Origin: Thermosulfurimonas dismutans
Lineage (GTDB): Bacteria; Desulfobacterota; Thermodesulfobacteria; Thermodesulfobacteriales; Thermodesulfobacteriaceae
Assembly (NCBI RefSeq): GCF_001652585.1
Contig: NZ_LWLG01000002.1
Span: 1 to 32,000, forward strand
Direction of reading: 5' to 3'
Length of the DNA stretch: 32,000 bases
Position numbers and translations under genes: made by a program. Shown piece after piece: positions 88 to 16,853 of this stretch. Position 1 is the stretch's first letter, and every line of letters begins with the position of its first letter. The notes beneath the pieces were generated by a model. That model was not told the origin of the DNA. It made no database searches and worked only from the letters and a program-made list of their open reading frames with translations.

Positions 88-395
88 AGGTCTCCGGGTG
101 CCCCGCCCCTTTCGAGGCGGCGGGGTTAAACGGGAAGCCGGTGAGAATCCGGCGCTGGCCCGCAACCGTGACCGGGGACGAAAGCCGCTGGAGGTCGGGC
201 CTAACAGCCCGGCCTCTCGCCCGGGCGCTCGAGGGGGTGAACCCGAAGGGTTCCCGGGTGGGCCGCGGGGTCGCAAAGGGCCCTGTGGCGACAGGCCACT
301 GGGTGGGCCACGGACGTAGGTAGTCCGTAGGCCCCCTGGGAAGGCGCGGCGAGTAGGACGATCCGGAAGCCGGGATACCGGCCCGGGGGCCGAGA
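88..395 (+). promoter_or_regulatory. Cobalamin (B12) riboswitch aptamer
   Basis: Conserved core GGGAAGCCGGTGAGAATCCGGCGCTGGCCCGCAACCGTGA at 132-172. GCCACTG at 295-301, CTGGGAAGGCG at about 336-346, and B12-box-like AAGCCGGGATACCGGCC at 367-383. GC-rich helices include CCCCGCC/GGCGGGG at about 101-126. It sits directly 5' of a TonB-dependent receptor gene. Aptamer boundaries are approximate. Confidence 0.85.
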
Positions 396-499
396 AAGGG
401 AGCGGAGCTTCGAGGCTAACTGCTCCGTTCCCGAGTCGGAGAACGTGCCTCTGGGCCGCGGACCAGAGGCCTCTCCTCCTCGGGAACATTTCCTCGAAG

Positions 500-535
500 C
501 TCCCTCCTTCGAAAAAAACTTTGCGAAGGGGGGAG
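500..535 (+). promoter_or_regulatory. Riboswitch expression platform: Shine-Dalgarno-sequestering helix
   Basis: CTCCCTCCTTCG (500-511) can pair over 12 bp (one G-U) with CGAAGGGGGGAG (524-535). The second arm contains the purine-rich SD just upstream of the ATG at 540. The loop is 512-523. Confidence 0.5.
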
Positions 536-539
536 GCGT

Positions 540-2459
540 ATGGCGAGAAGTTTTCTTCTGTTTCTGTTGGGCATGCTGGTCTTCGGATTTGCCGCGCCGG
601 TTACGGCTCAAACCTCCGCGGAGGAAGGAGCGGAGGTAGTGGTAACCGCCACGCGAGTTGAGACCGATGTGCGACACCTTCCGGACTCGGTGACGGTCAT
701 CTCCCGTGAAGACATAGACCGGCGGGAAGTCCAAGGGCTATACCAAGCTCTTGAGACCTATCCTTCCATATCCATCAAACACAACGGCTGGCTGGGACAG
801 TGGGGTTATCTGAGGCTTCGAGGAGGAAAAAGTCAGGATACAGCGGTGCTTTTTGATGGCGTACGTCTCTATGATCCTTCTTATCCCGCCAATGATTTCG
901 GAGATCTCTGGTCCTGGTTCGATGCCGAAAATTTCGAACGTATAGAAATTGTGCGTGGTCCCCAAAGTGCTCTTTATGGGTCCAACGCCATGACCGGGGC
1001 CGTAAACCTCATTCCCCGGAAAGGCGGAGGCCCCTTTGAGGCCCGCTTCAAAGGCGGTTACGGTCGCTACGATACTTGGCGTGGGACGGGCCATGTAAAA
1101 GGCTCCCTCGGGCCCCTCGGTTATTTCGTAGGAATCTCGGGGGTGAACACTGATGGTCTCTACCGAGATTCCGAATTCCGTCAGTCCACCGTAGACACTA
1201 ATCTAAATCTCACTCCCTTTGCTAACTCCTCAAACCGGATCCTGAAGACCCTCAAACTCGACTACACTCTCCGCTACGCTTACGGGTATCTCAATTACGG
1301 ACAGTGGGACTGGAAGAGCTTCAGAGCCTACAACGATCCTCATGCCGAACGCCGTCAGATCATCTTCCTCAATCATTTTACGGTGACTTTAAAACCTACT
1401 AAATGGTGGAACAGCAAATTAACTGCAGGTTACCATTTCACTAAAAGAGACTATCTTGACCGGGACGACGGGGTTCTGGCCTACAGAGCCGACGGCTCTC
1501 CGGTGACCGATAGTTACATGGATGGTCTTTATCGCGGAAAAGTCTATCCGGTGATCTTTCAAAACGACTTCTTTTACAAGGATTGGGTAATCCTCTCGGC
1601 TGGCATCGAATATTACAAAGAAAAAGGAGACTTTTATAATGCCTCTTCCTGGGGAACCAAGGAGTATGACGACGAGGTTTCGACTACCTCTTATTTTGCC
1701 AACCTTTTCCTATTGCCGATGGATGAGCGTCTCGCAGTGAACTTAGGGGCTCGCGTGGACGATCACGAAGAATTTGGCACGCACTTCACCTATAAGGTGG
1801 GCATGGCTTACTTCCTTACGGATACCTTGAAGATAAAAGCCAATTTAGCCACCGGTTTTCGGGCACCTTCCCTTTTCAATCTATATGATCCTCGCTACGG
1901 CAATCCGGATCTCGATCCGGAAGAAAGCACCGGCGGAGACATAGGTGTGGAACAGGAGCTTTTCGGCGGAAAACTTCGCTGGTCGGTCACCTGGTTCAAC
2001 ACCCACTATGAGGAACGCATAAGCTTCAACTATGCCACCTGGCATTACTACAATTCTGGAGGCGGAGTAGCTACCGGCCTTGAAACCGAAATAGAAAGTC
2101 GGCCCTATTCGTGGCTTTCCCTAGGGCTAAACTACACCTACACCGAAGGCCAAGAAGACGACACCGAAAACCTGGCCCTGGTGCCGCATCATCAAATAGG
2201 GGCCAGGGTCTCCTTTGAGTGGCAAAAATTACGTTTGAATCTCTACTACAAGTACGTAGGGCGCCGCCCGGCTTACGACCACAAACATATGATTGCCGAC
2301 TATAGCCGAGTGGACCTCACCGGGAGTTACGCCGTCACGGACTATGCTGAAGTGTTTTTCCGGGCGGAAAATCTCTTTGATGTGGACTACGAATGGGCCG
2401 CTGGTTATCGAGCCCCGGGCTTCAACCTTTTTGCGGGTATCAAGCTGAAGACCTTTTAA
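540..2459 (+). CDS. btuB: TonB-dependent outer-membrane receptor, BtuB-like (639 aa)
   Basis: Signal peptide MARSFLLFLLGMLVFGFAAPVTA-Q. TonB-box-like EVVVTATR. Plug motifs IEIVRGPQSALYGSNAMTGAVNLI. Beta-barrel ends in the aromatic residue ...GIKLKTF. Size is close to BtuB-type 22-strand receptors, and it lies immediately behind a B12 riboswitch. Confidence 0.85.
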   Translation: MARSFLLFLLGMLVFGFAAPVTAQTSAEEGAEVVVTATRVETDVRHLPDSVTVISREDIDRREVQGLYQALETYPSISIKHNGWLGQWGYLRLRGGKSQDTAVLFDGVRLYDPSYPANDFGDLWSWFDAENFERIEIVRGPQSALYGSNAMTGAVNLIPRKGGGPFEARFKGGYGRYDTWRGTGHVKGSLGPLGYFVGISGVNTDGLYRDSEFRQSTVDTNLNLTPFANSSNRILKTLKLDYTLRYAYGYLNYGQWDWKSFRAYNDPHAERRQIIFLNHFTVTLKPTKWWNSKLTAGYHFTKRDYLDRDDGVLAYRADGSPVTDSYMDGLYRGKVYPVIFQNDFFYKDWVILSAGIEYYKEKGDFYNASSWGTKEYDDEVSTTSYFANLFLLPMDERLAVNLGARVDDHEEFGTHFTYKVGMAYFLTDTLKIKANLATGFRAPSLFNLYDPRYGNPDLDPEESTGGDIGVEQELFGGKLRWSVTWFNTHYEERISFNYATWHYYNSGGGVATGLETEIESRPYSWLSLGLNYTYTEGQEDDTENLALVPHHQIGARVSFEWQKLRLNLYYKYVGRRPAYDHKHMIADYSRVDLTGSYAVTDYAEVFFRAENLFDVDYEWAAGYRAPGFNLFAGIKLKTF

Positions 2460-2509
2460 AGGCGTGAAGATTAAAGAGTCCCCCACCAAGCCCCACCCTT
2501 CCTCTCCTA

Positions 2510-2549
2510 CCCCGGGGCGGGGGTCTCATGCCCTGCTCCGGGGGCTTTT
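2510..2549 (+). terminator. Candidate intrinsic terminator or attenuator between the receptor gene and the cobN-like gene
   Basis: CCCCGGGGCGGGG (2510-2522) pairs with CCCTGCTCCGGGG (2531-2544), about 13 bp with one bulge and two G-U pairs and an 8-nt loop. It is followed by CTTTTA, so the U tract is only 4 nt. Confidence 0.4.
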
Positions 2550-2674
2550 AACATCGCTTTTCCAAATCAACCTATTTCTTCTTTCCCTTCGCTACAAAGG
2601 AGCGTTTAGATGGAGGCCTATAATTGGTATCAGCCGGAAGTTAATAAAATTTCCCGAGGAGGCCTTTTAACACC

Positions 2675-5600
2675 ATGTTAAACCTCCTATATTATACTTC
2701 AACCGGTACGGAGTTGCCCTCCCTCGAGAGGGCGGTAGCTGAGCTTCGGGCCGCAGGCCTACGCCTTAAGCTTGCAGTTTTCACCCGGGAAAGGGCTACC
2801 CTTGAGCGTAAAAAGCTTGAGGAGCTCGCCTCCCAGGCTGCAGCCCTAGTACTTGTCCCCCACGGAGGCGAGGAGAGCCTCCCGGGACTTGAAGGCCTTG
2901 TCTCTCGCTTCAAAGGCGAAATCATCCATGTGCAACCGGTCTCCGGAAGTCCGGCGGATCTTGAGCTAGTAGACAAATACGCCCGGCCGAAGGACGAGGC
3001 CTTTGGAGAGCGGGTCCGTTACCTTACCCTTGGTGGCCCGGAAAACCTCAAGAACTTCCTGCTGAAACTCCTTTCCGAGCTCGGCGAAGACGTGCCCGTA
3101 GCCGGTACTCCGGTTCCGTCTCCCACCGAAGGGATCTGGCACCCGGAAGGAGGCTTCTTTCCGGACCTTGAGACCTATCTCGACTTCCTAGAGCGGCGCT
3201 TTGGAAAAATTCCTCGCCCACTCGTGGGAATCTGGTTCTACCAGGGCTATTTCGTAAACGGGGATCTTGAACCGGTGAAAGATCTCGTCCAGGAAATCGA
3301 GGGCCTTTCGGCTGGGGCGCTTCCGGTCTTCCATCGAAGGTTCGTCTCCAAAGGCGAGGGGCTTCCGCCGACCGAGGTAGTGGAAAAGTTCTTCAAAAAG
3401 GAAGGCCTCAGCGTAATCCAGGCTCTAATCAATCTCCAGCCTTTTTCTCACCGACTCCTCTGGCCGGAGACTGAAAGGATCTATCCTGACCTCGATGTGC
3501 CCGTGCTTCAGGGGATTGTAAGTTTTGCTTCGCGCAAAAACTGGAAGGAATCCCCGGCAGGGCTCTCACCGCTTGAGGTCTCGGTTTCCGTGGCCCAGCC
3601 GGAGTTCGACGGCACTCTCATCACCTATCCTGTGGCCGGAAGGGATCAGGAAGAGGTCTCCGAGATCCTGGGGATCCCCATTCCGCGCCTAAAAACCATA
3701 CCGGAGGGGGTGCGCAGGCTTGCGAGGCTCGCCGTAAACTGGGCGCGCCTTAAACTTGTCCCCAACCGGGAAAAACGGGTAGCCATTGTCTTTCACCATT
3801 ATCCTCCTCGTGAGGACCGCATGGGCTGTGCCTTCGGACTGGACAGTTTTGAGTCCGTAGCCCGGCTCGTAAGGCGCCTTGCCGAGGAGGACTACGCCGT
3901 TGAAAAAGTATACGAGTCAGGCGAAGAGATCGCTCAAGAATTTCGAACCCGGCAAATTTACGACCGCCGCTATCTCTCGGAGACGGATCTCCTGACCAGG
4001 GCCCTCGTCAGGTGGCCGGTCGAGCGATTTCGTCCATATTTCGAACGGCTTCCGGAAGAAGCAAAGAAAAAACTTCGAGAGGCCTGGGGAGATTTTCCCG
4101 GCAAGTTTCTGGTCTCGGAAGGACAATTTCTCTTTTTTGGGATCCGGAATGGAAACCTGCTTCTCACACTTCAGCCCCCGCGGGGAAAGATCGAAAAGCT
4201 CTCGGCTGGCGACATCCACCGTCCGGACCTCCCGCCGCCCTATCATTATCTGGCTTTTTACACCTGGCTCAGGGAGGAATTTGGCGCCCAGGCCGTGATC
4301 CATGTGGGCAAACACGGAACCCTAGAGTGGCTTCCGGGGAAAGCCGTAGGTCTTTCCGAGGGCTGTTTTCCAGAGCTTGCCATCGCAGATCTTCCCAACC
4401 TCTATCCCTACATCGTAAACGATCCCGGGGAAGGCACACAGGGCCAAACGCCGAAGCTACGCCGCTATTCTAGATCACATGATCCCACCGCAGATGCAGG
4501 CCGGGCTTTCCGGCGAGCTCGCCGAACTCGCGGATCTACTGGAGGAATACCGCTCGCTTGCGGAGGAAAACCAGGCCCTGGCCGAGGAAACCCTGCGACG
4601 GATTCTTGCTAAAGGAAAAGAAACCGAGATCTTTAGCGAAATTTCAATCGGTTCCGAGGAGGCCGAAAGAGATCCGGAGAAATTTCTTTCGGCGCTACAC
4701 GACTACCTAGAAGAAGTAGCCGGAACTTATGTAAACCGAGGGCTTCATGTGTTGGGGAGGGTTCCAGAAGGTGAAGACCTGGAGGAAACCGTACGGGCCA
4801 TTCTGGAACATTCCGGAATGAGTAGAGAAGAGGTGAGGGGGCGTCTCTCGGGGATCCCGCAGGAGATGGCGCATCTGGTAAATGGGCTTTCCGGGGGCTT
4901 CGTGCCCCCGGGGCCCTCGGGGGCACCCACGAGGGGAGCGGTGGAGGTGCTACCCACCGGACGCAATTTTTTCTCCGTGGATCCTCTAAGGATCCCGACC
5001 CGCACAGCCTGGGAGCGAGGGGTGCGCCAGGCCGAGGCCCTGCTAGAAAGACATCGGCGGGACCATGGCCGGGTGCCCCGAACACTCGCCATGGTGCTCT
5101 GGGGCTCACCCACCATGCGTACCCGGGGCGAAGATTTCGCCTGTGCCCTCTGGCTCCTCGGGGTTCGCCCCCGCTGGAAAAACGACGGACGGATCTCCGG
5201 GGTGGAGGTGGTGCCGCTTTCCGAGCTCGGCCGGCCCAGGGTGGACGTCTGTCTTACGGTGAGCGGGTTTTTCCGGGACGCCTTTCGGAACTTGATGGAG
5301 CTCTTCGACCGCGCAGTGGCCGAGGTGGCTGCTATGCCGGAACCCCCGGAGATGAACCCCTTGGTGGAGGCCCTTAAAAGAGATCTTGAAGAACTTTGCT
5401 CCCAAGGACTTTCCCCGGAAAGAGCTCGCAGACTTGCCCTATTTCGGGTTTTTTCCGAACCTCCGGGGGCTTACGGCACCGGGGTGGAGACGGTGCTTGA
5501 CGCCGGAGCCTGGAAGAGTCGGCGGGATCTTGCCGAGGTTTTCCTTTCCACTATGGGCCACGCTTACGGAGAAGGGGCTTACGGAGCCGAAGCCAGGGAG

Positions 5601-6155
5601 GCCCTCCGCGGAGTGCTCTCCCGCACAGAGGTCACTTACAAGAACGAGGATACTCGGGAGATTGACATCCTTTCCTGTGATTGCTTCAACGCCTATCATG
5701 GAGGCCTAAATGCCACGGTGGAAGCTCTCTCTGGTCGCAAACCGGTTTCTTACTCCGCAAGCACCGCCGACCCGGAGCGCCCGGTGGTACGCACCACCGA
5801 GGAGGAAATGCGCTTTCTTTTCCGGATCAAGGTTTTGAACCCCCGCTGGATCGAAGGCCTGAAACAGCACGGCTTCAAGGGCGCGGGTGACCTCTCCCGG
5901 GTGGTGGACCTCATCTTCCAGTGGGACGCCACCAGCGATGTGGTCTCGGACCGCATGTACGAGGAGTTGGCCCGAACCTACGCCCTGGATCCCGGAATGC
6001 AGCGCTTCTTCCGAAAACATAATCCAGCGGCTCTTCTTAACATCGCCGAAAGGCTCCTTGAGGCCGCAAACCGCGGCCTCTGGCAGAACCCTGATCCTGA
6101 AGTCCTTAATCGCCTAAAGGACCTGGTGCTAGAGATGGAAAGGGAGCTTGAATGA
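2675..6155 (+). pseudogene. cobN: CobN-family chelatase large subunit (about 1160 aa if repaired), split by a single-nucleotide frameshift at about 4441-4443
   Basis: Two ORFs, 2675..4612 and 4479..6155. Frame 1 reads ...NDPGEGTQ and then turns into junk. The +1 frame continues AKRRSYAALLDHMIPP..., together restoring the conserved CobN/ChlH block NDPGEGTQAKRRS-x-A-x-x-DH-x-PP. Other CobN-like blocks: HVGKHGTLEWLPGK and VLPTGRNFFSVDP. It may be a true pseudogene or a sequencing error in a GGG run. Confidence 0.8.
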
Positions 6156-7348
6156 TCGAAGTAATCAAACCCTACGAAGGACTGGTGATAAAGCGCGGGG
6201 AAAGGATCCTCTTCGGGGAATTCTTAAAGCCCCATACCGTGATCTCCACCTGCCGGGTAAACGGCGGTCTTAGGAGCGGCCTCAGGTTCGTAGCCAATCA
6301 TCAGGCCTGCGAGCCCAAACCCCATCCCGAATGCGGGCACGGGGCCTGTCTGGCCAGCCGTGAGCCTAAGCGCTATCACCGTCTAATCTGCGAATATCAC
6401 GGACTGTCTCCGGAGGAAACCGCCCTCCTTGGCACGGCGGCCAACATGGCTCTAGCGGGCTTCGCGCGGAAGACCTTTCGGGGCCTTACCGTCTTCTGTG
6501 CGGCCACTGCCGGGGTGGAGACCAACGCCGGAAGGGCCGGGGACCCGGCCTCCTTCTATGAAGAGGATGGACGTTTCATAAAGATTTCCGACGAATCTTC
6601 CTTAAATAAGGCCCCGGCCTGCGATCGACGTGGAACCATCGTGCTCATGGTTTTTGTGAACCACGCCCTTACTCCCGGGGCCCTGGTGCGCGCGGTCAAA
6701 ATGGCCACTGAAGCCAAGGTCACGGTACTCGAGGAGCTACATGTGCCTTCGCGTTACTCCTGTGGCCGGGCCACAGGTACCGGCACGGATCAGATCGCAG
6801 TGGCGGCCCTTGAGTCCGGAAGACGCCCCCTTTCCGGTGCAGGAAAACATGTGAAACTCGGAGAACTGATCGCCCTTTCTGTGCGCGAGGCCCTTTTTCA
6901 AGCCCTGGCCCTTCAGAACAAACTTACCCCTGACCTCATACGCTACGCCCCGCGTCTTCTCGAGCGCTATGGCCTGAATGAAGAGGCCTTGCTTGCGGCC
7001 CTCAAGGATTACCTTCCGTCTCCGGTCTACGAGTGGCTCGTTCGCAATGTGCGTCCGGTTTTCGGAGACCTCGGACTAGTCTCTCACCTCATGGCCTATC
7101 TTCACCTCTGGGACCAGGTGTGCTACGGCGTGATACCGTCCGAGATAGCCGGTGAGGTCCTCCTGGACCAGGCGGCCCTTATCGCCTGTGCCCTTTCTCA
7201 GCGGCGAGGAGATTTTGGCCGATACCTTAAGGAGCTTGCCCAGCACAAAGCGGACCCGAAAAAACTCCTCCTTGCGGCCCTGGCTCTAGGATTTACCGCC
7301 AAGTGGCACCATCCTCTGGGGCAGGCCGTAGGCGTGATCCCTGGATGA
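6152..7348 (+). CDS. cbiZ: CbiZ-like adenosylcobinamide amidohydrolase domain with a C-terminal helical extension of about 150 aa (398 aa)
   Basis: Motifs recalled from the CbiZ family: STCRVNGGL, LGTAANM, GTIVLMVFVNHALTPGALVRAVKMATEAKVTVLEEL, ATGTGTDQIAVAA. The ATG overlaps the cobN stop (ATGA at 6152-6155). The family call is from memory of motifs and was not searched. Confidence 0.6.
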   Translation: MIEVIKPYEGLVIKRGERILFGEFLKPHTVISTCRVNGGLRSGLRFVANHQACEPKPHPECGHGACLASREPKRYHRLICEYHGLSPEETALLGTAANMALAGFARKTFRGLTVFCAATAGVETNAGRAGDPASFYEEDGRFIKISDESSLNKAPACDRRGTIVLMVFVNHALTPGALVRAVKMATEAKVTVLEELHVPSRYSCGRATGTGTDQIAVAALESGRRPLSGAGKHVKLGELIALSVREALFQALALQNKLTPDLIRYAPRLLERYGLNEEALLAALKDYLPSPVYEWLVRNVRPVFGDLGLVSHLMAYLHLWDQVCYGVIPSEIAGEVLLDQAALIACALSQRRGDFGRYLKELAQHKADPKKLLLAALALGFTAKWHHPLGQAVGVIPG

Positions 7349-9108
7349 AACGAATTGGTCACCTCTCAATAAGGGGCTGCTTTGTCGTAGGGCTGGCTCT
7401 CCTTATGGTTTTAGGGTTAGGGGCCTGCCGAAAGAGGCCGGAGTCCCAACCACAGGTTGTCTTTGGCCCAATGGGCTTGGAAATTTCAGGACTTCCCGAA
7501 AAGACTCCGGTTAAGCTATACGATACTTCGGGAAAGCTCCTTCTAGCATATCCTCCGCTTCCTAGCCGGGATCTCCTCCTAATTTTTCCCTGGCAGCCGC
7601 GTGAAACCTACCACCTTGTGGCAGGAAGTTTCTCTTTACGGCTTCAAAGCCCTGATTCACGGCCCCTAGCCGAAATCGAGGTCTTTGCCCCTCTTGGAAG
7701 CCCGGGAAGACGATTTTTGATCTTTGAGACGGGTCCCATTAAGCCCGAGGAGTTCGTCATCCTCTCAAAAGACCCCTGCCCGGAGGTGGGCTTCCTGATA
7801 ACTTCCTTTGTTTCTGAACTTCCGGTGCGTATTCCAACCTTCGAGAAAACCCTTGTCCTTTCCGGAGAATTCGATCGGCACCTTTTTCACCACCGGATCT
7901 GCCTCGCACCCGAGGTTCCACGTAGGATCACGCTGATCACTGGGAAAAGGCGTCTTTCCCTGCTCTTCAAACGAATGGTCTTTGATCTCAAAGGCAAGGT
8001 CAAACTCGTCTCTTGGCGAGTGCCCACCGAAGAGTCAGGTTATAGCCTACGGTATAGGCGAGAAGGGCTTCTAGTGGTTCCGAATCCTCTCTTCGAGCGT
8101 CTGGGTTATCTTTTGGGAATAAAGGCTCAGGGATTTTCCCGCTACGCCCCCTTTGCCTATCAGACCTTGGTCCTCAAAAATCTCACCGGCTCCCCGCTCA
8201 ACCTCCTGGTGAAAGCCGACTTTCTGGACCCCAAGACCGGGAAGCCGGTTCCAGGTTTTTATCCCCCGCGCTTCGGCATGATCGGGCACTTTAAAAAACC
8301 CCTGGCCCTGGTGTATCTTCCCCCACATGGAAATGCGCAGGTGGTCCTGCCCATTTACGTGGAGGGCGTGTCTCCAGGCGAGTATGTGGCCCGGGTGGCG
8401 GTCTATCCCCTGGGAGAGGAAAAACCCCTTTTCGTTAAGGCGCGTCGGATAGGAGTCACCCGCGGGAGCCCGTGGCTTGCCGCCGGGCTCTTGATGATCC
8501 TGGCCACTGGGGCCCTTTATAGCGGGGCCATTTTCCTCGGTCTTCGCCGGCTCCTTTCCGGCTTCAATCTCCGAGAGCTCTCCCTGGTGGCCTTGGCCGG
8601 GGCCGTGGCCTTCGGGCTGGACTTCCTCGGGGGGCTCCTCTCGAACATCCTCTACGCCTTTCTCGGTCCTTTCAACATTCTGGTCGGGGGGCTCGTCACC
8701 GAGGTGGTGCACTACGCAGTCTTCACCGCGGTGCTGGTATTGGTGCCGAGGCCGGGGTTCGCCACCCTCTCCGGACTCCTACATTACCTCATGGGCCTTA
8801 CGCTTTTCGGAGGCTTGCGGGCTACGGATCCCTTTTTCCTCGGGGCCAGGTTATTTGTGATCGAGGCGTGCCTGTTTCTCTTCCGAGGTTACCGCAGACC
8901 CTGGGGCGGGCGCACGGTCCTGGCCCTGGCGATAGCCGACGCCATAAACACCCTCACCTCTCTCGTCCTTCACATGACCTTTTACCGGCTCTTTTTTCCG
9001 GGCTGGTACCTCTGGCTTTCGCTTCTCGTAAAGGGCTTCCTTTACACCCTCATCGGGGCCTGGCTCGGCGCCCGCATGGGGAAACACCTCCTGGGAATGG
9101 AGCGATGA
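7345..9108 (+). CDS. Lipoprotein-signal protein: soluble domain of unknown function (about 345 aa) fused to a C-terminal domain with 6-7 TM helices. Positional candidate for the ECF substrate-capture (S) component
   Basis: I prefer the ATG at 7345 (ATGA overlap with the upstream stop) over the track start at 7303. N-terminus is MKRIGHLSIRGCFVVGLALLMVLGLGA-C (lipobox L-G-A-C). Hydrophobic helices run from about nt 8467 (WLAAGLLMILATGALYSGAIFLGL ... WYLWLSLLVKGFLYTLIGAWLGA). It lies immediately upstream of, and overlapping, the ECF ATPase gene. Confidence 0.6.
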   Translation: MKRIGHLSIRGCFVVGLALLMVLGLGACRKRPESQPQVVFGPMGLEISGLPEKTPVKLYDTSGKLLLAYPPLPSRDLLLIFPWQPRETYHLVAGSFSLRLQSPDSRPLAEIEVFAPLGSPGRRFLIFETGPIKPEEFVILSKDPCPEVGFLITSFVSELPVRIPTFEKTLVLSGEFDRHLFHHRICLAPEVPRRITLITGKRRLSLLFKRMVFDLKGKVKLVSWRVPTEESGYSLRYRREGLLVVPNPLFERLGYLLGIKAQGFSRYAPFAYQTLVLKNLTGSPLNLLVKADFLDPKTGKPVPGFYPPRFGMIGHFKKPLALVYLPPHGNAQVVLPIYVEGVSPGEYVARVAVYPLGEEKPLFVKARRIGVTRGSPWLAAGLLMILATGALYSGAIFLGLRRLLSGFNLRELSLVALAGAVAFGLDFLGGLLSNILYAFLGPFNILVGGLVTEVVHYAVFTAVLVLVPRPGFATLSGLLHYLMGLTLFGGLRATDPFFLGARLFVIEACLFLFRGYRRPWGGRTVLALAIADAINTLTSLVLHMTFYRLFFPGWYLWLSLLVKGFLYTLIGAWLGARMGKHLLGMER

Positions 9109-10475
9109 GGAAGGCTTCGATCAGGGTAAAAAATCTTTCTTATCGCTATCCCGAAGGAACGGGTCCGGCCCTTGAGGGCATAAGTTTTGAGGTCCGGCCT
9201 GGGGAAGTGTTTCTTTTGGCTGGAGAAACTGGTTCCGGAAAGAGCACCCTTCTTTCCGTGCTATGTGGTCTCATCCCGGCGGAATCCGGGGGCGAGTTCT
9301 CCGGGAAAGTGGAAGTGCTGGGGCGCCAGTGGCCGGTTGCTCCCGGGGAGATCTTTCCAGAGGTAGCGGTTGGCTTCCAGAACCCAGCAGAACACCTCCT
9401 TGCGGAAACGGTCTTTGCCGAGGTGGCCTTCGGACTTGAGAACCTGGGGTTTTCCCCTCTGGAGATTCGGAAGCGAGTGGCCGAGGCCCTGGAAAGTGTG
9501 AATCTTTCTGGTTTCGAGGACCGAAGGCTTTCTGAGCTTTCTGGAGGCGAGCGCCAGCGGGTGGCCCTGGCCGCGGCTCTCGCGGTGAAACCCCGGTTGC
9601 TTCTTCTCGACGAACCTCTGGCCCAACTTGACCCTCAGACGGCCCACAGGGTGATGACCATTCTGCGGACCTTAGCGAACAATGGCCTCACGGTGATCCT
9701 TGCCGAACACCGGTTAGACCTGGCCCTCGGCTTTGCCGATCGGGTATGTTTTCTCGAAGGTGGACGCGTGGCCTTCTGTGGACCGAGTAAAGATTTCCGC
9801 CCCCCGGCCCGAAAATTTCCTCTTTTGCCCCGAGCCCGCCCCGGAGAAGTGCTGATAAGCCTGCGGGATCTGGCTTTTGCCCGTCCCGGAAAATCCGAGG
9901 TCTTCCGGGGGATTACCCTTGACTTTCGTGCCGGAGAAAGGGTGGCCCTTTTAGGGCCCAACGGCTGCGGTAAAACTACTTTTCTACATCTTTTGGCCGG
10001 GCTCCTAGAGCCCACCGCCGGTCGGATAGAGATCCGAACTAAAGCCCCAACCGGAAGCCTTCTCGTGGGGCTTCTCCTTCAGGATCCGGATCTCATGCTC
10101 ATAAGAGAAAGCGTATACGCGGAGCTAGCCTTTACCCCGGAAAACCTAGGGCTTTCCGAAAAAGAAATCCAGCGTCGGGTTAAATTGGTAGCTGAAAAGC
10201 TGGCCCTTTCCGATTTCCTTGATAGGGTTCCCTTTGCCCTTTCCCGGGGTCAACGTCTGCGGGTAGCCCTGGGCTCGGTTATCACCGGCCATCCCCGCAT
10301 CTTGCTTCTCGACGAACCCACCACTGCCCAAGATCCTCGGAACACCGCCCGCCTGCTCGCTACGCTCTCGGCGGATCTCGTGATCTTCTCCACCCACGAC
10401 GAGGAGGTGGCCCGGGTACTGGCTACGCGCGTGCTGCGCTTCGAAGATGGGGAGATCAGGGAGGTCAACAAATGA
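9105..10475 (+). CDS. Fused double ATPase of an ECF-type (CbiO/EcfA-A'-like) ABC transporter (456 aa)
   Basis: True start is MRKASIRVKNLSYRY at 9105 (ATGA overlap); the track start at 8868 lies inside the upstream gene. NBD1: GETGSGKST, LSGGERQRVALA, LLLLDEP. NBD2: GPNGCGKTT, LSRGQRLRVALG, ILLLDEPT. Confidence 0.85.
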   Translation: MRKASIRVKNLSYRYPEGTGPALEGISFEVRPGEVFLLAGETGSGKSTLLSVLCGLIPAESGGEFSGKVEVLGRQWPVAPGEIFPEVAVGFQNPAEHLLAETVFAEVAFGLENLGFSPLEIRKRVAEALESVNLSGFEDRRLSELSGGERQRVALAAALAVKPRLLLLDEPLAQLDPQTAHRVMTILRTLANNGLTVILAEHRLDLALGFADRVCFLEGGRVAFCGPSKDFRPPARKFPLLPRARPGEVLISLRDLAFARPGKSEVFRGITLDFRAGERVALLGPNGCGKTTFLHLLAGLLEPTAGRIEIRTKAPTGSLLVGLLLQDPDLMLIRESVYAELAFTPENLGLSEKEIQRRVKLVAEKLALSDFLDRVPFALSRGQRLRVALGSVITGHPRILLLDEPTTAQDPRNTARLLATLSADLVIFSTHDEEVARVLATRVLRFEDGEIREVNK

Positions 10476-11308
10476 ACACCAGAAAACTTCACCCCTATAC
10501 CAAGTTCGGAGTCTCGTTTCTGGTCTCCGGACTCTCGGTGATCTTGGACCGACCCCTCTCCCTTGCGGTCCTGACCAGCCTAGCCCTTGTCCTTCTCCTG
10601 CTCTCAAGACCCGGGCGACAGATCCTTAAGACCTACCTCTTACTTACAGTGACTACCGTCTGGGGGATCATGGTGAGCCAGGGACTCTTTTATCAGGAGT
10701 ATCCGCGCACGGTGCTCTTCTGCCTGATACCCCCGGGAGAACACTTCGCTGGTTTGTGTTTCATAAAAGAGGGTTTCCTTTACGGGTTGATCCAGTCCCT
10801 GCGTCTGGTGGCCGCCCTTTCGGCCGGCCTCTATCTCGTGACTTCAACCCCGCAGGAGGCCTTCTTCCGAGCGGTCTCGGCCCTTCCGCTTCCTAGAGGA
10901 CTAACGCTTATGGCGGTCTCGGCCGTGAGGTTTCTACCCACGGTAGCTGAGGACCTCAGACTGATAAGGAAAGCCCTGCGTTTAAAAGGTTACCGGCCCT
11001 TGAAACGGGGAATCCTCTACACGATCAAGGTAGAGCTTTCAGTAATCTACCCGCTGCTTTCCCAAGCGGTGAGGCATTCGCGCTCCTTGGCCGACGCCCT
11101 TCTCACCAGGGGCTTTGATCCGTTGTCTCCCTCAAGGAGGCTCTTTCTTTCCCCCTGGCCCAGGCCTGAAAAGATCTTGACCGTACTCCTTTTGTTGTTG
11201 GGTTTAGGGGTGTTCGTTCTCAAGGTTTTGTTTTGGCTTTATCTCCAGGAGGTCCTTTATGTTGAAAGCCTGCGTCCGCTCTATGCCCTGGTGCGCAACT
11301 TTCTTTAA
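10472..11308 (+). CDS. ECF transporter transmembrane (T) component, CbiQ/EcfT family (278 aa)
   Basis: N-terminal LHPYTKF. Coupling-helix motifs IRKALRLKGY and LADALLTRGF (A-x-x-x-RG type). Multiple TM helices. ATGA overlap with the ATPase gene. Confidence 0.8.
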   Translation: MNTRKLHPYTKFGVSFLVSGLSVILDRPLSLAVLTSLALVLLLLSRPGRQILKTYLLLTVTTVWGIMVSQGLFYQEYPRTVLFCLIPPGEHFAGLCFIKEGFLYGLIQSLRLVAALSAGLYLVTSTPQEAFFRAVSALPLPRGLTLMAVSAVRFLPTVAEDLRLIRKALRLKGYRPLKRGILYTIKVELSVIYPLLSQAVRHSRSLADALLTRGFDPLSPSRRLFLSPWPRPEKILTVLLLLLGLGVFVLKVLFWLYLQEVLYVESLRPLYALVRNFL

Positions 11309-11312
11309 AACT

Positions 11313-12179
11313 TTATTTTCGGAGCTTGCGCCTTTTTCTTTCGGCTTCAAGAAGGGTCTCCGGCTTTCCGGAAAATTCCGCCCCGGAGACTACCTGGACG
11401 CCGCGGCCTTCAGCAGCCTCAAAAAGGGGCTCAGCCCAACGCCGCCAGTAAAGGTCCCGGAGGAGATGATGGTCAAGGATAAGGTTTCTCGGGGAAACCT
11501 CACGGAGAATGCGAAGAAGGTTCGCCCGGGCTACTTCCAGGGCCTTGAGACCAAAGCGCGGCCCCAAGTAGGTAGATGGACCGTCCACGAAAAGGATATC
11601 TGGTCTTTGAGTCAAAATGAAATCCACGGCCTCTTCCAGTACCGGGCCGGAAACATCCGAGGAGTGAAGGAAGGTCGTCCCGCCTTCCCGCACCGCCACC
11701 GAGACCACGCAGCCGAAACGGGCCTCCGGTCCATGCCAGAGCGGTCCGGAAACTACGATTTCTCCCCCGAGAAGCTCAATTCGCCGTCCCTCAGCTACCT
11801 CCCAGCGGACTCCGGCCCGGATAAGTCTCTCAATAAACTCCCCGGCTCGCCGGGCCTGATTGCGATTGATGTTCCGCACTGGATCCTTGATGAAGAGGAG
11901 TTTTCCCTGAAGATCTCCCGCCCAGTCCGGGCTGTAGTGGTCGAAATGGTAGTGGGTGATGAAAACGATCTCTGCTGTCCGGAGTCTTTTCCGAATAAGC
12001 TCCCGGAGTTCGGCCAGCCTCGCAATCTCGATCTCGTCCGGGGGAAGGCCGTAGCGCTTCGGACCGAGAGCTGCTCCGGGGTCTATGAGGATCTTCGTTC
12101 CGCAGGCCTCCACCTCCACCGCCATAGAGCGCACCCCGAGGCTCTCGGAGGCCAGCACCTCAATCCTCATAACGCCCAT
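11313..12179 (-). CDS. Metallo-beta-lactamase-fold hydrolase (288 aa), UPF0282-like
   Basis: H-x-H-x-DH motif in ITHYHFDHYSP. Later HSSD and LDHH metal-ligand-like motifs. The sequence is coherent and globular, unlike the antisense + strand ORF. Confidence 0.7.
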   Translation of the reverse strand: MGVMRIEVLASESLGVRSMAVEVEACGTKILIDPGAALGPKRYGLPPDEIEIARLAELRELIRKRLRTAEIVFITHYHFDHYSPDWAGDLQGKLLFIKDPVRNINRNQARRAGEFIERLIRAGVRWEVAEGRRIELLGGEIVVSGPLWHGPEARFGCVVSVAVREGGTTFLHSSDVSGPVLEEAVDFILTQRPDILFVDGPSTYLGPRFGLKALEVARANLLRILREVSPRNLILDHHLLRDLYWRRWAEPLFEAAEGRGVQVVSGAEFSGKPETLLEAERKRRKLRK

Positions 12180-12236
12180 CAGGATAGCCGCAAAAGCGTT
12201 CTCTGGAAAGCTCTCAGAAGGTTCCTCGTCAAGATT

Positions 12237-13676
12237 GTGATCCTGGCTCTATTCTTGCTACCTCGTATGAGTTTCGCCGAACGGTTTCGGGCCTTTGGGC
12301 TGAACCTTCTTTGGGAACACCCCCTGGGCGACATCTCCTTTCATGTGCGGGCCGGCCATACCCCGGATTCCTTCGTACGGTTTTCTCCGGACGGACGCCT
12401 CCTGGCGGTGGGCACCTTGAAGGGGGACCTTTTGGTCTTTGAAAGTCTCACCGGAAAACTTGTTCTCCGGAAGAAGATACCCGAGGCCATGGTGAAACGA
12501 GTGGCCTTTTCTCCAGACGCAAAGCGCCTCTACTACGGAGAGCAGAGCCCAGAGGGCGCGGTGTGTGCCCTTGAGCTTCCTTCCGGTAAAACCCTCTGGT
12601 GTTTCCGCACCGCCGGGGACCTCCTGCGGGGGGAGCCTCCTCTCCCAGGGGATCTCTACGGTATTTACCGGCTTCCCGGCATATACCGGCTGAAAATCTT
12701 ACGGGACGGCGATCTTCTCGTGCTGGGCATCCACTCTTGGTACGACCGAAAGCTCCGGATTTGGCGCAGGCTTTCGCGCCTTTATCGCTTAAGCCCTAAA
12801 GGGAAGATACGCTGGGCCTATCCCTCAGACGGTCCGGCCCCGGTAAATATCATCTACGCGGACTCCGATCCTTCCGGAAAAAGGGTGGCCTTGGTGGCCC
12901 TTCTTCCTTCGGAATATAAGGAAGATCTCTCCTTAAAAGGACCACCACCTCAGAGCTTCGTGGCCCTTGATGGAAGAACCGGAAGAAAGCTCTTTCATTT
13001 CACGCTTTCGCCCTTGAAACCTTACTTCGACCGGGTTTCGGCCTGGGAATCGGTGGCCGTTTCTCGAGATGGACGCTTCGCTATACTCGGCACCACCGAT
13101 GGAAGGCTTTTTGTCTTTGACCTAGAGAAGAAGAGCCTCCACCGCCTCCTCACCCTGGCCACTCCGATCATCCTGGGGGGGTTTCCGGTTTCGGCCTCCC
13201 TGGGGTATGGTCTCTTCGGGCCGGATGGCCTCATCTATGTGGTCTCCGGTGAAAGCACTCTGCCCTACGGTCTGCCTCTGGCCGTAGATCGGCCGGCCGG
13301 ACCGCACCCTGCAGCGCGCACCCTTTTTGCCGTAGACCCCAAAACAGGGGCCATCCTCTGGCGCTTCACCTCACCCGTAAAGCTCCAGGGACTTTCTTCC
13401 GACGCCACCGGACGCACCCTTGCGGTATGCACCGGAGCCTTCCGCAAAGAGGCTTTACGGGTACGCCAGTTTGGCGTGCTGGTCTTCGACCTCAAAAAGG
13501 AAGGGGGCGGCCTTTCCAAATTGGTGGGTTATTTTCCCACCGCCGGGACCTGTTTCTTCCATCTGGCAGTCTCTCCCGACGGCCATCTCATCGCGGCCGT
13601 GGAGACTCCCTGGCGCGACGAAATCGGCCGCCTTTACGGCAAACACCGCCTCCTCGTCCTCCGCCGATCTCCCTAA
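12237..13676 (+). CDS. Beta-propeller (WD40/PQQ-like) repeat protein, possibly exported
   Basis: Repeated blade motifs: FSPDGRLLAVGTLKGDLLVFE, FSPDAKRLYYGE, VSRDGRFAILGTTDGRLFVFD, SSDATGRTLAVCTG, VSPDGHLIAAVE. Start is uncertain. GTG at 12237 gives a hydrophobic N-terminus (ILALFLLPRMSFA); ATG at 12267 is the alternative. The track's 805-aa ORF (from 11259) is an antisense artefact upstream of about 12200. Confidence 0.65.
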   Translation: MILALFLLPRMSFAERFRAFGLNLLWEHPLGDISFHVRAGHTPDSFVRFSPDGRLLAVGTLKGDLLVFESLTGKLVLRKKIPEAMVKRVAFSPDAKRLYYGEQSPEGAVCALELPSGKTLWCFRTAGDLLRGEPPLPGDLYGIYRLPGIYRLKILRDGDLLVLGIHSWYDRKLRIWRRLSRLYRLSPKGKIRWAYPSDGPAPVNIIYADSDPSGKRVALVALLPSEYKEDLSLKGPPPQSFVALDGRTGRKLFHFTLSPLKPYFDRVSAWESVAVSRDGRFAILGTTDGRLFVFDLEKKSLHRLLTLATPIILGGFPVSASLGYGLFGPDGLIYVVSGESTLPYGLPLAVDRPAGPHPAARTLFAVDPKTGAILWRFTSPVKLQGLSSDATGRTLAVCTGAFRKEALRVRQFGVLVFDLKKEGGGLSKLVGYFPTAGTCFFHLAVSPDGHLIAAVETPWRDEIGRLYGKHRLLVLRRSP

Positions 13677-13862
13677 GGGCTCACATAGAAGACCGATTAT
13701 GGTGTGTCCATAGTGCCCCCTCTTGACTCGGAACTCAAGTAGAAAACTGTCCAGATGACCAGACTAAGGGGTCCAGAGCCTCATCCAAGATCCTCACACC
13801 GGTGGAATTAATTTGACTCTTGCCATCCGAGGACCATTTCCATTAAAGTTTAAGTCCCCCTC

Positions 13863-14609
13863 ATGGAAACCGTGCTTGAGGTCCGGAACCTGGTCAAGGA
13901 TTTCGGAGGCCACAGGGCCCTTTCAGGGGTAAATTTTGTCCTTTCACGGAGAGAATTTCTGGGAATCATCGGCCCAAATGGAGCCGGAAAGACCACGCTC
14001 CTCAACTGCCTTCTCGGCCTGATCACCCCCACGAAGGGAGAAATCCGGTTTTTCGGTCTCGAGCTCGAAAAACACCAGGTCTATATCCTTTCCAGGATTA
14101 ATTTCGCCTCAAACTATGTAGGACTCCCCTTATCCCTTACCGTCTTTGAGAATCTTGTGGTTTACGGTCTGCTTTACGGGGTTTCGGAAATAAAGGCCCG
14201 AGCCGAGCGGTTGCTCAAGCTTTTCGGACTGTGGGAAATGCGGAATCAGAAGACCCGTCATCTCTCCTCAGGTCAGATGATGCGTCTATGTCTGGCCAAG
14301 GCCCTGATGAACGATCCAGAGGTGCTGCTCCTTGACGAACCTACCGCCGGACTTGACCCGGAGATAGCCGAAAGGGTCCGCAAATTAATCAAGGCTTATC
14401 AAAGAGAAAAGGGCCTTGCGGTCATCTTCACCTCCCACAATCTACACGAAATGGAAGAACTCTCGGATCGTGTGATCCTCCTCAATAAAGGTCAGATCCT
14501 CGCCGAGGGCCCACCGCAGGAACTCTGCCGCCGTTTTGGGGCTAAGAATCTTGAGGAAGCCTTCTTCAAGGCCCTAGATCTTTGGGAGGCCGAGAATGTT
14601 GAGGGCTAA
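13863..14609 (+). CDS. ABC transporter ATP-binding protein (ABC-2/DrrA-like exporter type, 248 aa)
   Basis: Walker A GPNGAGKTT, signature LSSGQMMRLCLAKAL, Walker B LLLDEPTAGLD. Followed by an overlapping ABC-2 permease gene. Confidence 0.85.
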   Translation: METVLEVRNLVKDFGGHRALSGVNFVLSRREFLGIIGPNGAGKTTLLNCLLGLITPTKGEIRFFGLELEKHQVYILSRINFASNYVGLPLSLTVFENLVVYGLLYGVSEIKARAERLLKLFGLWEMRNQKTRHLSSGQMMRLCLAKALMNDPEVLLLDEPTAGLDPEIAERVRKLIKAYQREKGLAVIFTSHNLHEMEELSDRVILLNKGQILAEGPPQELCRRFGAKNLEEAFFKALDLWEAENVEG

Positions 14610-15390
14610 AAGGATTCTCGGAGTAGTGGCCAGACAGGTCTTTCTCTATCGACGGAGCTTCAGCCGAATCCTGGATCTCTTCTACTGGCCCACCATGGAC
14701 ATCCTTCTCTGGGGTTTTCTTACCCTTTACCTTGAACGGGGAACCCTCCATCTTCCCCGTTTTGTTTCCTTCTTCCTGGGGGCCCTCATCCTCTGGCACA
14801 TCCTCTACCGTTCCCAGATTGCGGTCTCGGTATCCTTCCTTGAGGACATCTGGTCCCGTAATCTCCTCAACCTTATGGTGGCCCCTTTAACCCTTACGGA
14901 ATACATGCTCGGTCTTATCACCGTAAGCCTAATCAAGGTCTCTTTAGCCTTCACCATCATGGCCTCGCTTGCGGGTCTCTTTTACGGCTTCAACATCTTT
15001 AAGCTCGGGGTAAGCCTCATACCTTTCGTGGTGAATCTTTTGGCCCTTGGTTGGGCCATAGGTTTTGTGACCATAGGCTTTATCTTCCGTTTCGGGCAGG
15101 AAGCCGAGATCCTGGCCTGGGCTTTGGCCTTCGTGTTTCTGCCGCTCTCGGCAGTTTTCTATCCGCTTTCGGTGCTTCCGCCCATTATCCGGGATCTAGC
15201 TTGGTTTACTCCCTCGGCCCATGTCTTTGAGGGCATGCGGGCCGTAATCGAAAATGGCACCATCCCCTTGAGACACCTTATCTGGGCCACGGGGCTTAAC
15301 CTCGCCTATCTCTCCTTCGGGGCTTGGTTCATGCGTCGCCAGTACGAATATGCCCGCGAGAAAGGAACCATTCCTAAGATAGGAGAGTAG
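14596..15390 (+). CDS. ABC-2 type transporter permease (264 aa)
   Basis: Six predicted hydrophobic helices and a typical ABC-2 layout. Overlaps the ATPase stop by 14 nt. Confidence 0.75.
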   Translation: MLRAKRILGVVARQVFLYRRSFSRILDLFYWPTMDILLWGFLTLYLERGTLHLPRFVSFFLGALILWHILYRSQIAVSVSFLEDIWSRNLLNLMVAPLTLTEYMLGLITVSLIKVSLAFTIMASLAGLFYGFNIFKLGVSLIPFVVNLLALGWAIGFVTIGFIFRFGQEAEILAWALAFVFLPLSAVFYPLSVLPPIIRDLAWFTPSAHVFEGMRAVIENGTIPLRHLIWATGLNLAYLSFGAWFMRRQYEYAREKGTIPKIGE

Positions 15391-16147: not shown

Positions 16148-16166
16148 CTCTTAAGGAGATATCTTC

Positions 16167-16853
16167 TCACAATGGTAGAGCAAGCAATCCCGAAAGGTCC
16201 GAAACCACCAAGTCTGTTTCGACTTCAGTCGGAGGTGTGGCCCCATAAGGGTCGCGTCCGGGACGTTTCACCCAGCAAGTCTTAAGCCCCAGCTTTCTAG
16301 CCGGGGCAATATCGTGAAAGAGGCTCTGCCCTACATGGAGAATACGCTCTCGGGGTTCCCCAATCCTTTCAAAGGCCAGTTCGAAAATCTTCGGATCCGG
16401 CTTGTAAGTCCGAGCCTCCTCCGCAGTCAACACCAGGTCAAAATCTACCACGAAGTGTTTAAGGGTTTCAGCCATGAGGTCACGGTCAATGTTAGAGATG
16501 ATGCCAAGCCTGAAGCCCCGATTCTTGAGTTCACGAAGAATAAAGTTCACCTCCGGAAAAGGAGGCCACTCCGGAAGGCTCTTTACCAGCAATTCTTCCT
16601 CGCCTGGCTGAAGATCAAACCCCAGTCTCTCCCTCAGACCTTTGAGAACCAGACAAAGGACTTCTCGATAGGGACGGTATTCTCTTTCGAACCGACTCTC
16701 AAGTTTCCCGTAAGCCCGCAGAACGCTAAGGGACTCTAGTTCAAGACCAGACCTTTCCAGCAAAGGGGCGATGGTCTCTAGTATACCCGTTTCCCAGTCG
16801 ATCAGGGTGCCGTAACAATCGAAGGTTATCCAGGAAAAGATCCTCTTGTTCAT
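16167..16853 (-). CDS. HAD-superfamily hydrolase, 2-haloacid dehalogenase-like (228 aa)
   Basis: Motif I ITFDCYGTLIDWE. ISNIDRD and a later K-x-P-D block (TYKPDPKIFE) typical of HAD subfamily IA. Confidence 0.75.
   Translation of the reverse strand: MNKRIFSWITFDCYGTLIDWETGILETIAPLLERSGLELESLSVLRAYGKLESRFEREYRPYREVLCLVLKGLRERLGFDLQPGEEELLVKSLPEWPPFPEVNFILRELKNRGFRLGIISNIDRDLMAETLKHFVVDFDLVLTAEEARTYKPDPKIFELAFERIGEPRERILHVGQSLFHDIAPARKLGLKTCWVKRPGRDPYGATPPTEVETDLVVSDLSGLLALPL

Follow-up and report, generated by a model that had tools for sequence, protein, structure and literature searches.

Transporters of the energy-coupling factor (ECF) type are defined by the absence of an extracytoplasmic binding protein and are regarded as mainly Gram-positive systems, in which the module of A ATPases and T component requires an S subunit. 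The gene cluster analysed here, at 88–11308 of a 32,000-nucleotide stretch of Thermosulfurimonas dismutans DNA (NZ_LWLG01000002.1, positions 1–32,000, forward strand; hereafter the window), places such a module in a diderm vent bacterium, behind a cobalamin riboswitch and in a row of six genes on the same (+) strand that encode a BtuB-like TonB-dependent receptor, CobN, CbiZ, a 587-aa protein that we call LipoS, a fused A-A' ATPase of ECF type and a T component. Using a combination of Rfam covariance models, Pfam and NCBIfam hidden Markov models (HMMs), PDB sequence and profile searches, AlphaFold (AF2) modelling, Foldseek comparison and RNA folding with z-scores, we find that LipoS is predicted to join a tethered extracytoplasmic domain to an S-component-like membrane core, and we consider it probable that the operon scavenges external corrinoids around a dedicated group I ECF importer with a fused capture subunit. 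T. dismutans is a thermophilic, sulfur-disproportionating autotroph whose Wood–Ljungdahl pathway is corrinoid-dependent (PMC4911364).

The nearest described systems are YkoEDC in operon logic and fold, and ECF-CbrT and BtuB–BtuFCD in function. In the group I transporter YkoEDC of B. subtilis, which is under riboswitch control, YkoE (5EDL) serves as S subunit and the ATPase YkoD is a fused A-A' (PMC5037267). YkoEDC shares with the present cluster its riboswitch control, the fusion of two ATPase domains in one protein (YkoD) and a T component of its own (YkoC); its dedicated S subunit would correspond to LipoS, and YkoE is the only credible structural neighbour of the LipoS core; unlike LipoS, it is a stand-alone Gram-positive protein of about 200 aa without an extracytoplasmic domain, binds thiamine under THI-box control and shares no detectable sequence similarity with LipoS. 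ECF-CbrT of Lactobacillus delbrueckii, an ATP-driven ECF-type importer of cobalamin and cobinamide, is the only characterised ECF route for vitamin B12 (as cited in PMC6072759 and PMC8620254), but it pairs a small S subunit with a shared group II module in a monoderm and has no TonB receptor, tethered capture domain or propeller. BtuB–BtuFCD of E. coli resembles the cluster in its TonB-dependent outer-membrane step, periplasmic capture, ATP-driven inner-membrane step and B12 riboswitch; BtuFCD is a type II ABC importer with soluble BtuF, whereas here the inner-membrane machine is of ECF type (type III) and capture would fall to a domain fused to the membrane subunit.

Three further comparisons frame the problem. 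In diderms that have BtuB and lack BtuFCD, BtuM brings the S-component fold to B12 uptake, and for many such BtuB-positive, BtuFCD-negative bacteria no inner-membrane B12 transporter has been identified (PMC6072759). BtuM is a protein of about 22 kDa that has no ECF module and ligates cobalamin through a cysteine, in contrast to LipoS with its periplasmic domain of about 340 aa and its A-A' neighbour. The metal importers CbiMNQO and NikMNQO (NikK/NikL) are likewise group I ECF systems, often under B12-riboswitch control, with T and A components of the CbiQ and CbiO families; NikM and CbiM have an extra N-terminal helix, and some metal ECF systems add extracytoplasmic helpers. LipoS differs in having no similarity to CbiM or CbiN, an N-terminus that cannot form a CbiM-type metal site, and linkage to CbiZ and BtuB-like receptors. 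The Bacteroides BtuB–BtuG–BtuH relay sets the beta-propeller B12 binder BtuG and lipoproteins around BtuB (PMC10404256, PMC8941943) and so resembles the multi-protein relay with propeller and lipoprotein considered here; BtuG, however, is a surface DUF4465 lipoprotein and the Bacteroides inner membrane uses BtuFCD, whereas the propeller here is PQQ_2/WD40-like with a plain signal peptide.

CobN-family and CbiZ genes have also been placed in uptake loci before: the former in loci for the uptake of B12 or heme (Rodionov 2003, as cited in PMC6460266) and the latter beside corrinoid transporters (Gray 2008, as cited in PMC8620254). The BtuS/HmuS and CbiZ–btu clusters share this feature with our locus and differ from it in that CobN here is cytoplasmic and of CobN type by HMM and PDB ranking, and that the transporter partner is an ECF system and not BtuFCD. 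A sequence-only reading of the window had taken the combination for a candidate undescribed system; in the literature that we searched, whose coverage is incomplete, we came across neither a fusion of an S component with an extracytoplasmic domain (including in a structure-based survey of the S fold, PMC11109136) nor an ECF system linked to both a TonB receptor and a propeller. The parts are known (riboswitch, TonB receptor, CobN, CbiZ, ECF module), and it is the protein in the S position, with its module, that is undescribed.

LipoS and its ECF module

LipoS (7345–9108, +) opens with a lipoprotein signal (Cys28), continues through three beta-sandwich modules at residues ~37–373 that are predicted to be extracytoplasmic, and reaches its six-helix S-component-like core (~409–586) through the helix TM0 (transmembrane helix 0; 376–398). 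At E ≤ 10 the whole protein, its N-terminal domain and its core match nothing in Pfam, NCBIfam or the PDB (phmmer and profile searches, which would cover any deposited ECF-CbrT chains), and the HMMs of known S-component families (ECF_trnsprt, ABC_cobalt/YkoE, BioY, CbiM and others) match neither the core nor the full length. CbiM, CbiN and NikM show no similarity at the same threshold, so that the protein is not the ordinary CbiM/CbiN homologue whose appearance would have undone the sequence-only reading. The evidence for its fold comes from modelling: an AlphaFold model based on the family alignment has a predicted local distance difference test score (pLDDT) of 84 over the full length, and the core modelled alone reaches a pLDDT of 88 and a predicted template-modelling score (pTM) of 0.84. 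Foldseek ranks YkoE (5EDL) first for the core, with probability 1.0, 191 of 197 columns aligned, a root-mean-square deviation (rmsd) of 5.1 Å and a TM-score of about 0.5, and all remaining matches have an rmsd above 10 Å. This match to a group I S component speaks for the S position that the sequence-only reading had given to the 587-aa protein. Matches of full-length LipoS were generic tandem Ig-like proteins (adhesins, macroglobulins), and we set them aside as uninformative.

LipoS is also the only membrane-protein candidate beside the ECF A-A' and T genes, which is why we take it to be their putative S subunit. The A-A' gene (9105–10475, +) encodes a 456-aa protein with two ABC domains (ABC_tran in two stretches) that scores 290 bits against TIGR01166 cbiO (cutoff 212), 306 against ECF_ATPase_1 and 300 against ECF_ATPase_2; the T gene (10472–11308, +) encodes a 278-aa member of the CbiQ family (PF02361, 66 bits versus 25) that stays under the TIGR02454 cutoff (50 bits).

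The fusion is a property of the family. A word-indexed search of 5.8 billion protein clusters returned 24 relatives, all full length and, where named, "hypothetical"; an exhaustive profile search of 1.84 billion representatives returned 433 family representatives at E ≤ 0.001 (266 at E ≤ 1e-30), nearly all of 550–700 aa, and among the clusters of ten distant members every named one is again a "hypothetical protein". The core remains fused in 170 of the 172 family sequences examined, the other two being fragments. The signal of the modelled protein has an invariant lipobox Cys28; across the family a lipobox-like motif is present in only 88 of 152 full-length members, and many others appear to have a signal-anchor helix. 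The lipobox is clade-specific, and the conserved feature is therefore a tethered extracytoplasmic domain fused to an S-like core and not lipidation itself.

The distribution of charges in LipoS (RR after TM0, a K/R-P-G loop, RGYRRP and the C-terminal GKHLLGMER) fits the positive-inside rule for a model with a periplasmic N-terminal domain and an N-in/C-in six-helix core. Within the core helices, D426, T452–E453, H456–Y457, D495, E507, D532, R548 and K563 are invariant and look as a ligand pocket would be expected to look. In the extracytoplasmic domain, invariant positions hold aromatic residues, proline or glycine and there is no conserved histidine or cysteine cluster, a pattern that does not resemble a metal site. 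The core has only one invariant histidine. We tentatively posit that LipoS may represent an unrecognised ECF class, in which the S component, joined covalently to a membrane-tethered capture domain in the periplasm, would work with a dedicated soluble propeller and a TonB receptor as an envelope-spanning corrinoid relay.

The window proteins map in the order BtuB–CobN–CbiZ–LipoS–A-A'–T in 15 genome loci (related loci are cited below by number, L001 onwards). More than ten independent genomes and metagenome-assembled genomes (MAGs) share this arrangement, which is therefore not due to chance; Thermodesulfobacteriota keep the neighbourhood throughout, and parts of it are also found in Desulfobacterales and in a Planctomycetales MAG, in line with the earlier proposal that these genes belong together. 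A-A' follows LipoS wherever the sequence continues, except in L011, where the cluster ends after LipoS with neither A-A' nor T, and in L023, which is disrupted by an element; T mostly comes next. The near-invariant module is thus LipoS plus A-A', usually with T, and the TonB receptor and a secreted propeller are frequent partners, while CbiZ, CobN, a TIM-barrel protein and a radical S-adenosylmethionine (SAM) protein are clade-specific additions and not part of the conserved core.

The range of these arrangements is wide. L027 has the full gene set, and L022, from a T. atlanticus isolate, has cbi genes followed by TonB receptor–CbiZ–LipoS–A-A'–T–propeller without CobN. Desulfobacterales loci retain CbiZ–LipoS–A-A', and L012 sets riboswitch–CbiK–DUF3450/ExbB/ExbD/TonB–TPR ahead of the same three genes. 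The Planctomycetales locus (L014) reads ExbBD–TonB–receptor–LipoS–A-A'–T; L016 reads CbiC–CobN–ChlD–ChlI–unknown–LipoS–A-A'–T–TIM barrel and has no CbiZ; L018 reads homocysteine S-methyltransferase–LipoS–A-A'–T; and L020 reads propeller–LipoS–A-A'–T–receptor, followed by a riboswitch ahead of the next gene. L024 has LipoS–A-A'–T–propeller, L025 has receptor–two unknowns–propeller–LipoS, and a contig of ERR13166144 has receptor–unknown–LipoS–A-A'–T–propeller. In L016 the protein between ChlI and LipoS (8028–9872, 614 aa, no family match) was considered as a LipoS paralogue and rejected (BLASTP E 0.96).

L023, from Thermosulfurimonas sp. F29, carries TonB receptor–CobN–CbiZ–LipoS and then a mobile-element insertion: directly after LipoS lies an island (11901–16700) with integrase, PIN toxin and DNA-methyltransferase genes, and A-A' and T are not adjacent. 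The MAG binchicken_co219_327 holds two LipoS clusters, one without CobN and T (L009) and the other without A-A' and T (L011), which could be paralogues sharing one ECF module or two strains binned together.

Riboswitch, receptor and enzymes

For the remaining members of the cluster, HMM searches agree with the identities proposed from sequence alone (TonB receptor, CobN, CbiZ, ECF A-A' and T), and the four ATGA start/stop overlaps noted then, at 6152, 7345, 9105 and 10472, can all be read in the sequence. The window contains no btuFCD genes, as had been stated. The six-gene set stands in its identities but not in the assumption of a single open frame for CobN, which is split into two open reading frames (ORFs) by one extra G; similarly, the cluster limits hold for the core genes but left outside a propeller gene at 12237–13676.

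The cobalamin riboswitch aptamer (79–400, +) passes the RF00174 gathering score (52.8 bits versus 31.5, E 1.3e-10), and the riboswitch blocks recognised earlier are all present, including the exact B12 box GCCACUG at 295–301. A GC-rich insert of ~110–140 nt at about 186–294, which folds into three hairpins (−74.5 kcal/mol, z −5.0), accounts for the unusual length of the aptamer; a long aptamer (317 nt) recurs in the relative L002, and those of the remaining relatives measure about 200–220 nt. The Rfam alignment sets the B12 box at 184–191, whereas the exact motif lies at 295–301, and the model alignment around the insertion is therefore probably off. Further downstream, a 12-bp stem (500–511/524–535, +) covers the Shine–Dalgarno sequence GGGGGGAGG ahead of the ATG at 540 and forms a putative expression platform (500–535); the fold of 478–545 (−29.9 kcal/mol, z −3.5) is consistent with translational control of btuB. 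Among the related loci with sequence upstream of the cluster, five (L002, L006, L008, L011 and L012) proved to have a cobalamin riboswitch, and none was found upstream of LipoS in L004 and L014.

The 215-nt gap between btuB and cobN contains a 13-bp GC-rich hairpin followed by GCUUUUAAC (2510–2552, +; −31 kcal/mol, z −4.2). It was not flagged in a strict terminator scan, which requires at least five T, and is possibly a leaky terminator or a processing site; the hairpin and U-tract may give the downstream genes lower expression. L027 has just 10 nt at this place, an argument that in the family the genes form one transcription unit, and riboswitch control would then reach the genes beyond the gap.

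The receptor (540–2459, +) is a 639-aa protein with a signal peptide, a plug (PF07715, 84 bits) and a TonB_dep_Rec barrel (PF00593, 135 bits). Its top-ranked NCBIfam model is TonB-B12 (TIGR01779), aligned end to end at 247 bits, and E. coli BtuB aligns with it in one stretch (residues 33–628); the receptors of the window, L006 and L022 all rank the BtuB model first and align with it end to end at 247–313 bits. Since the score stays below the BtuB equivalog cutoffs (TIGR01779, 247 versus 599.7 bits; PRK10641, 207 versus 836), we name the protein BtuB-like and not BtuB.

CbiZ, the adenosylcobinamide amidohydrolase (6152–7348, +, 398 aa), is identified above the HMM threshold by PF01955 (184.9 bits versus a gathering score of 27, residues 24–247). 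It removes the lower-ligand arm of cobinamide or pseudocobalamin in salvage and remodelling, and corrinoids are its only known substrates. In at least 13 related loci, including Desulfobacterales loci at 39% LipoS identity, its gene is the next one upstream of LipoS, and in the window the two genes are translationally coupled through the ATGA at 7345. The protein has a C-terminal extension of about 150 aa (residues 248–398, 6893–7345) that is kept in relatives (tblastn covers residues 2–388); these 151 residues have no significant Pfam match.

CobN is the large subunit of the aerobic cobaltochelatase and requires AAA+ partners. In the window its gene (2675–6155, +) is given as two ORFs, 2675–4612 and 4479–6155, PF02514 being found on both halves, and the break is caused by one surplus G in a run at 4441–4443: the window reads ACACAGGGCCAAAC where seven relatives read CAGGCCAA, within the invariant motif YPYIVNDPGEGTQAKRRSY. 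Removal of one G yields a 1159-aa protein without an internal stop, which exceeds the TIGR02257 equivalog cutoff (907 versus 822 bits), so that the CobN call holds after repair; in the PDB ranking CobN (667 bits; nearest entries 7c6o and 9uk9) stands ahead of ChlH (454) and HmuS (379). The lesion is probably a 454 homopolymer error, because it falls within a run of one base, the half of the gene beyond it has not decayed, the frame is open in seven relatives and the sole published T. dismutans assembly was built from Roche 454 GS FLX reads (PMC4911364); a very recent pseudogene is a less probable alternative. A programmed frameshift or genuine pseudogene was set aside, given the extra base in a G run of an invariant motif and the seven of seven relatives in frame; the contig of the closest relative (L026) stops short of the site. 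CobN is intact in L027 (1182 aa). In Thermodesulfatator autotrophicus (L006, 7105–7995) the CobN position is occupied by a 296-aa remnant matching two separate parts of CobN, which suggests decay in that genome, in line with CobN being dispensable. No AAA+ partners (CobS/CobT or ChlI/ChlD) were found in the window or in the loci of close relatives, and ChlI/ChlD adjoin CobN in the distant locus L016.

Downstream of the ECF module, the propeller gene (12237–13676, +, GTG start 12237) encodes a secreted 479-aa PQQ_2/WD40-like protein (PQQ_2, 37 bits) that matches a T. dismutans protein at NCBI with 100% identity and the same start. It has no DUF4465 match and no lipobox, and the only Pfam domains in its family are of PQQ_2/WD40 type. 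It directly follows EcfT in L003, L004, L006, L015, L022 and L027 and adjoins LipoS modules in distant loci (L020, L024, L025 and the ERR13166144 contig), and is a probable periplasmic partner of the LipoS system. In the window it is separated from ecfT by a metallo-beta-lactamase (MBL)-fold gene on the opposite strand (11313–12179, −; PRK04286 family, 200 bits), which occupies the same place in L001 and L002. An 805-aa ORF (11259–13676, +) was rejected as a longer form of the propeller, its first ~330 codons being an antisense shadow of the MBL gene and the NCBI start lying at 12237; the public gene call for L027 took the corresponding long ORF (797 aa) rather than the propeller start.

Two neighbours occur in related loci. 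In L011 (7748–8866), and probably also in a gap of L010 (4540–5519), CobN and CbiZ are separated by a radical SAM/SPASM-type gene with best matches, all weak, to peptide maturases and NirJ/AhbC-like tetrapyrrole-modifying radical SAM enzymes. A xylose-isomerase-like TIM-barrel gene (AP_endonuc_2, PF01261) is present in L008 (4313–5347), L009 (2110–3123), L011 (3012–4031) and L016 (14406–15407) and absent from the window. Its superfamily is that of the cobamide-remodelling enzyme CbiR (PMC7733943), but the similarity extends to the superfamily level only and we did not adopt that name; the gene has no NCBIfam match and no homologue named CbiR, and belongs to a small, unnamed family. Elsewhere in the window, a tRNA gene at 17158–17230 (−; RF00005, 67 bits) is unrelated to the cluster.

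Substrate and competing explanations

The sequence-only reading had left the substrate between a corrinoid and Co2+. We keep both, a corrinoid as the probable substrate and cobalt as a less likely but live rival, and we infer a route as follows, including its substrate, the hand-over between capture domain and propeller and the role of CobN. Through the BtuB-like receptor a corrinoid, which could be cobalamin, cobinamide or a foreign cobamide, would enter the periplasm, where the tethered beta-sandwich domain of LipoS may capture it, probably with the propeller as a soluble shuttle; capture domain and propeller would together take the role that soluble BtuF plays for BtuCD. The ligand would pass to the six-helix S-like core of the same LipoS polypeptide, and the A-A' ATPase and T, to judge from their families, would power import. 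Cytoplasmic CbiZ would then, as in its family, cut the aminopropanol or nucleotide arm to give cobyric acid, from which the needed cobamide could be rebuilt, the need in T. dismutans being that of the corrinoid Fe-S protein of the Wood–Ljungdahl pathway. CobN, which some clusters lack, most likely (re)inserts cobalt or handles cobalt-free or damaged corrinoid rings, and this is the least certain step. At high B12 the riboswitch would close and the btuB ribosome-binding site would be hidden.

We favour a corrinoid because of the riboswitch, CbiZ as the tightest neighbour, receptors that rank BtuB first and invariant residues that do not resemble a metal site. The corrinoid-dependent Wood–Ljungdahl pathway of the organism and the cbi biosynthesis genes beside the T. 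atlanticus copy also count for this reading. Several observations weigh on the other side. Cobalt chelatases recur beside the module (CobN here, CobN–ChlD–ChlI–CbiC in L016, CbiK in L012), and a chelatase neighbourhood is the classic context of a cobalt transporter. The score of the receptor is far under the BtuB equivalog cutoff, and the LipoS-linked receptors of distant lineages are heme-receptor-like or generic (heme receptors being the nearest family for that of L014), so members of the LipoS family may not all share one substrate. L018, L024 and, on its upstream side, L004 lack any B12 context. LipoS has no sequence similarity to any S-component family, CbrT included as far as the PDB searches would cover it, T is not adjacent to A-A' in L009, L012 and L013, and the large tethered domain and extra helix are hard to square with the toppling motion proposed for S components. 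Finally, riboswitch control may be cut off from the downstream genes by the hairpin between btuB and cobN.

The alternative that survives best, which we nevertheless regard as unlikely, is a cobalt (or nickel) importer. Here LipoS–A-A'–T would be a non-orthologous replacement of CbiMNQO, the TonB receptor would take up a cobalt complex, Co2+ would be supplied to the adjoining chelatases, and CbiZ would merely be a co-regulated B12-salvage gene. B12 riboswitches often control cobalt ECF transporters, A-A' exceeds the TIGR01166 cbiO cutoff and T belongs to the CbiQ family; the chelatases beside the module (CobN in the window and many relatives, the CobN–ChlD–ChlI–CbiC set of L016, the CbiK of L012) and the cbi biosynthesis genes that adjoin the T. 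atlanticus copy are also what such an importer would lead one to expect. The protein in the S position speaks against it: it lacks similarity to CbiM, CbiN and NikM at E ≤ 10, and whereas CbiM and NikM bind metal through a free N-terminus, that of LipoS is lipidated or anchored some 370 residues from the core. Its extracytoplasmic domain has no invariant histidine or cysteine cluster and its core a single invariant histidine, while the tightest and most widespread enzyme neighbour, CbiZ, acts on corrinoids and not on the metal. The receptors of this clade are most like BtuB, and for one ion an apparatus made up of TonB receptor, propeller and 340-residue capture domain would be heavy.

Salvage of another metallo-tetrapyrrole, heme-like or a metal-free porphyrinoid, with CobN running in reverse as a dechelatase in the manner of HmuS or the Bacteroidota BtuS, appears improbable. 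The idea draws on the stand-alone CobN-like proteins of TonB-receptor operons, which are heme dechelatases or members of the BtuS family (PMC12583661, PMC6460266), on the lack of a ChlI/ChlD or CobS/CobT partner in the window, and on the LipoS-linked receptor of L014, whose nearest family is that of heme receptors. Yet the repaired CobN passes the CobN equivalog (907 versus 822) and ranks CobN above ChlH above HmuS, and its 1159 aa include no N-terminal signal or transmembrane segment, whereas HmuS and BtuS are periplasmic and membrane-anchored and HmuS exceeds 1400 aa (PMC6460266, PMC12583661); on the HMM and PDB rankings and the missing export signals we rejected an identity as a periplasmic HmuS/BtuS-type dechelatase. 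The CobN of L016 has AAA+ partners, and control in our locus is by a cobalamin riboswitch and not by iron or heme. CbiZ, moreover, plays no part in heme metabolism.

Least likely of all is that LipoS does not bind substrate and is instead an accessory, sensor or assembly protein, or that the module does not import and gene order reflects co-regulation only: the S-component fold does occur in sensor proteins (PMC11109136), the fold evidence is a single moderate match (YkoE), A-A' has no T gene beside it in L009, L012 and L013, and in L011 neither A-A' nor T comes after LipoS, but the core stays fused in 170 of 172 sequences, A-A' follows LipoS in nearly every continuing locus (with an ATGA overlap here), the invariant polar residues within the core helices resemble a ligand pocket, and none of these operons offers an alternative candidate S subunit.

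Implications for ECF transport in diderms

If LipoS does carry corrinoids across the inner membrane in the way proposed, an S subunit with its own periplasmic capture domain, working with a TonB receptor and a propeller, would blur the definition of ECF transporters, and the system would be the first ECF importer to rely on an extracytoplasmic binding module. It would raise the mechanistic question of how an S domain that is anchored twice could topple. The family comprises ~430 representatives at 50% identity from Thermodesulfobacteriota, Desulfobacterales, Planctomycetota and other diderms, and several hundred "hypothetical proteins" would gain testable functions and names. If true, the proposal would also offer a candidate for the step, so far missing, that takes B12 across the inner membrane in several diderm phyla with BtuB and no BtuFCD, and it would make corrinoid exchange more predictable in communities of vents and sediments based on Wood–Ljungdahl autotrophs.

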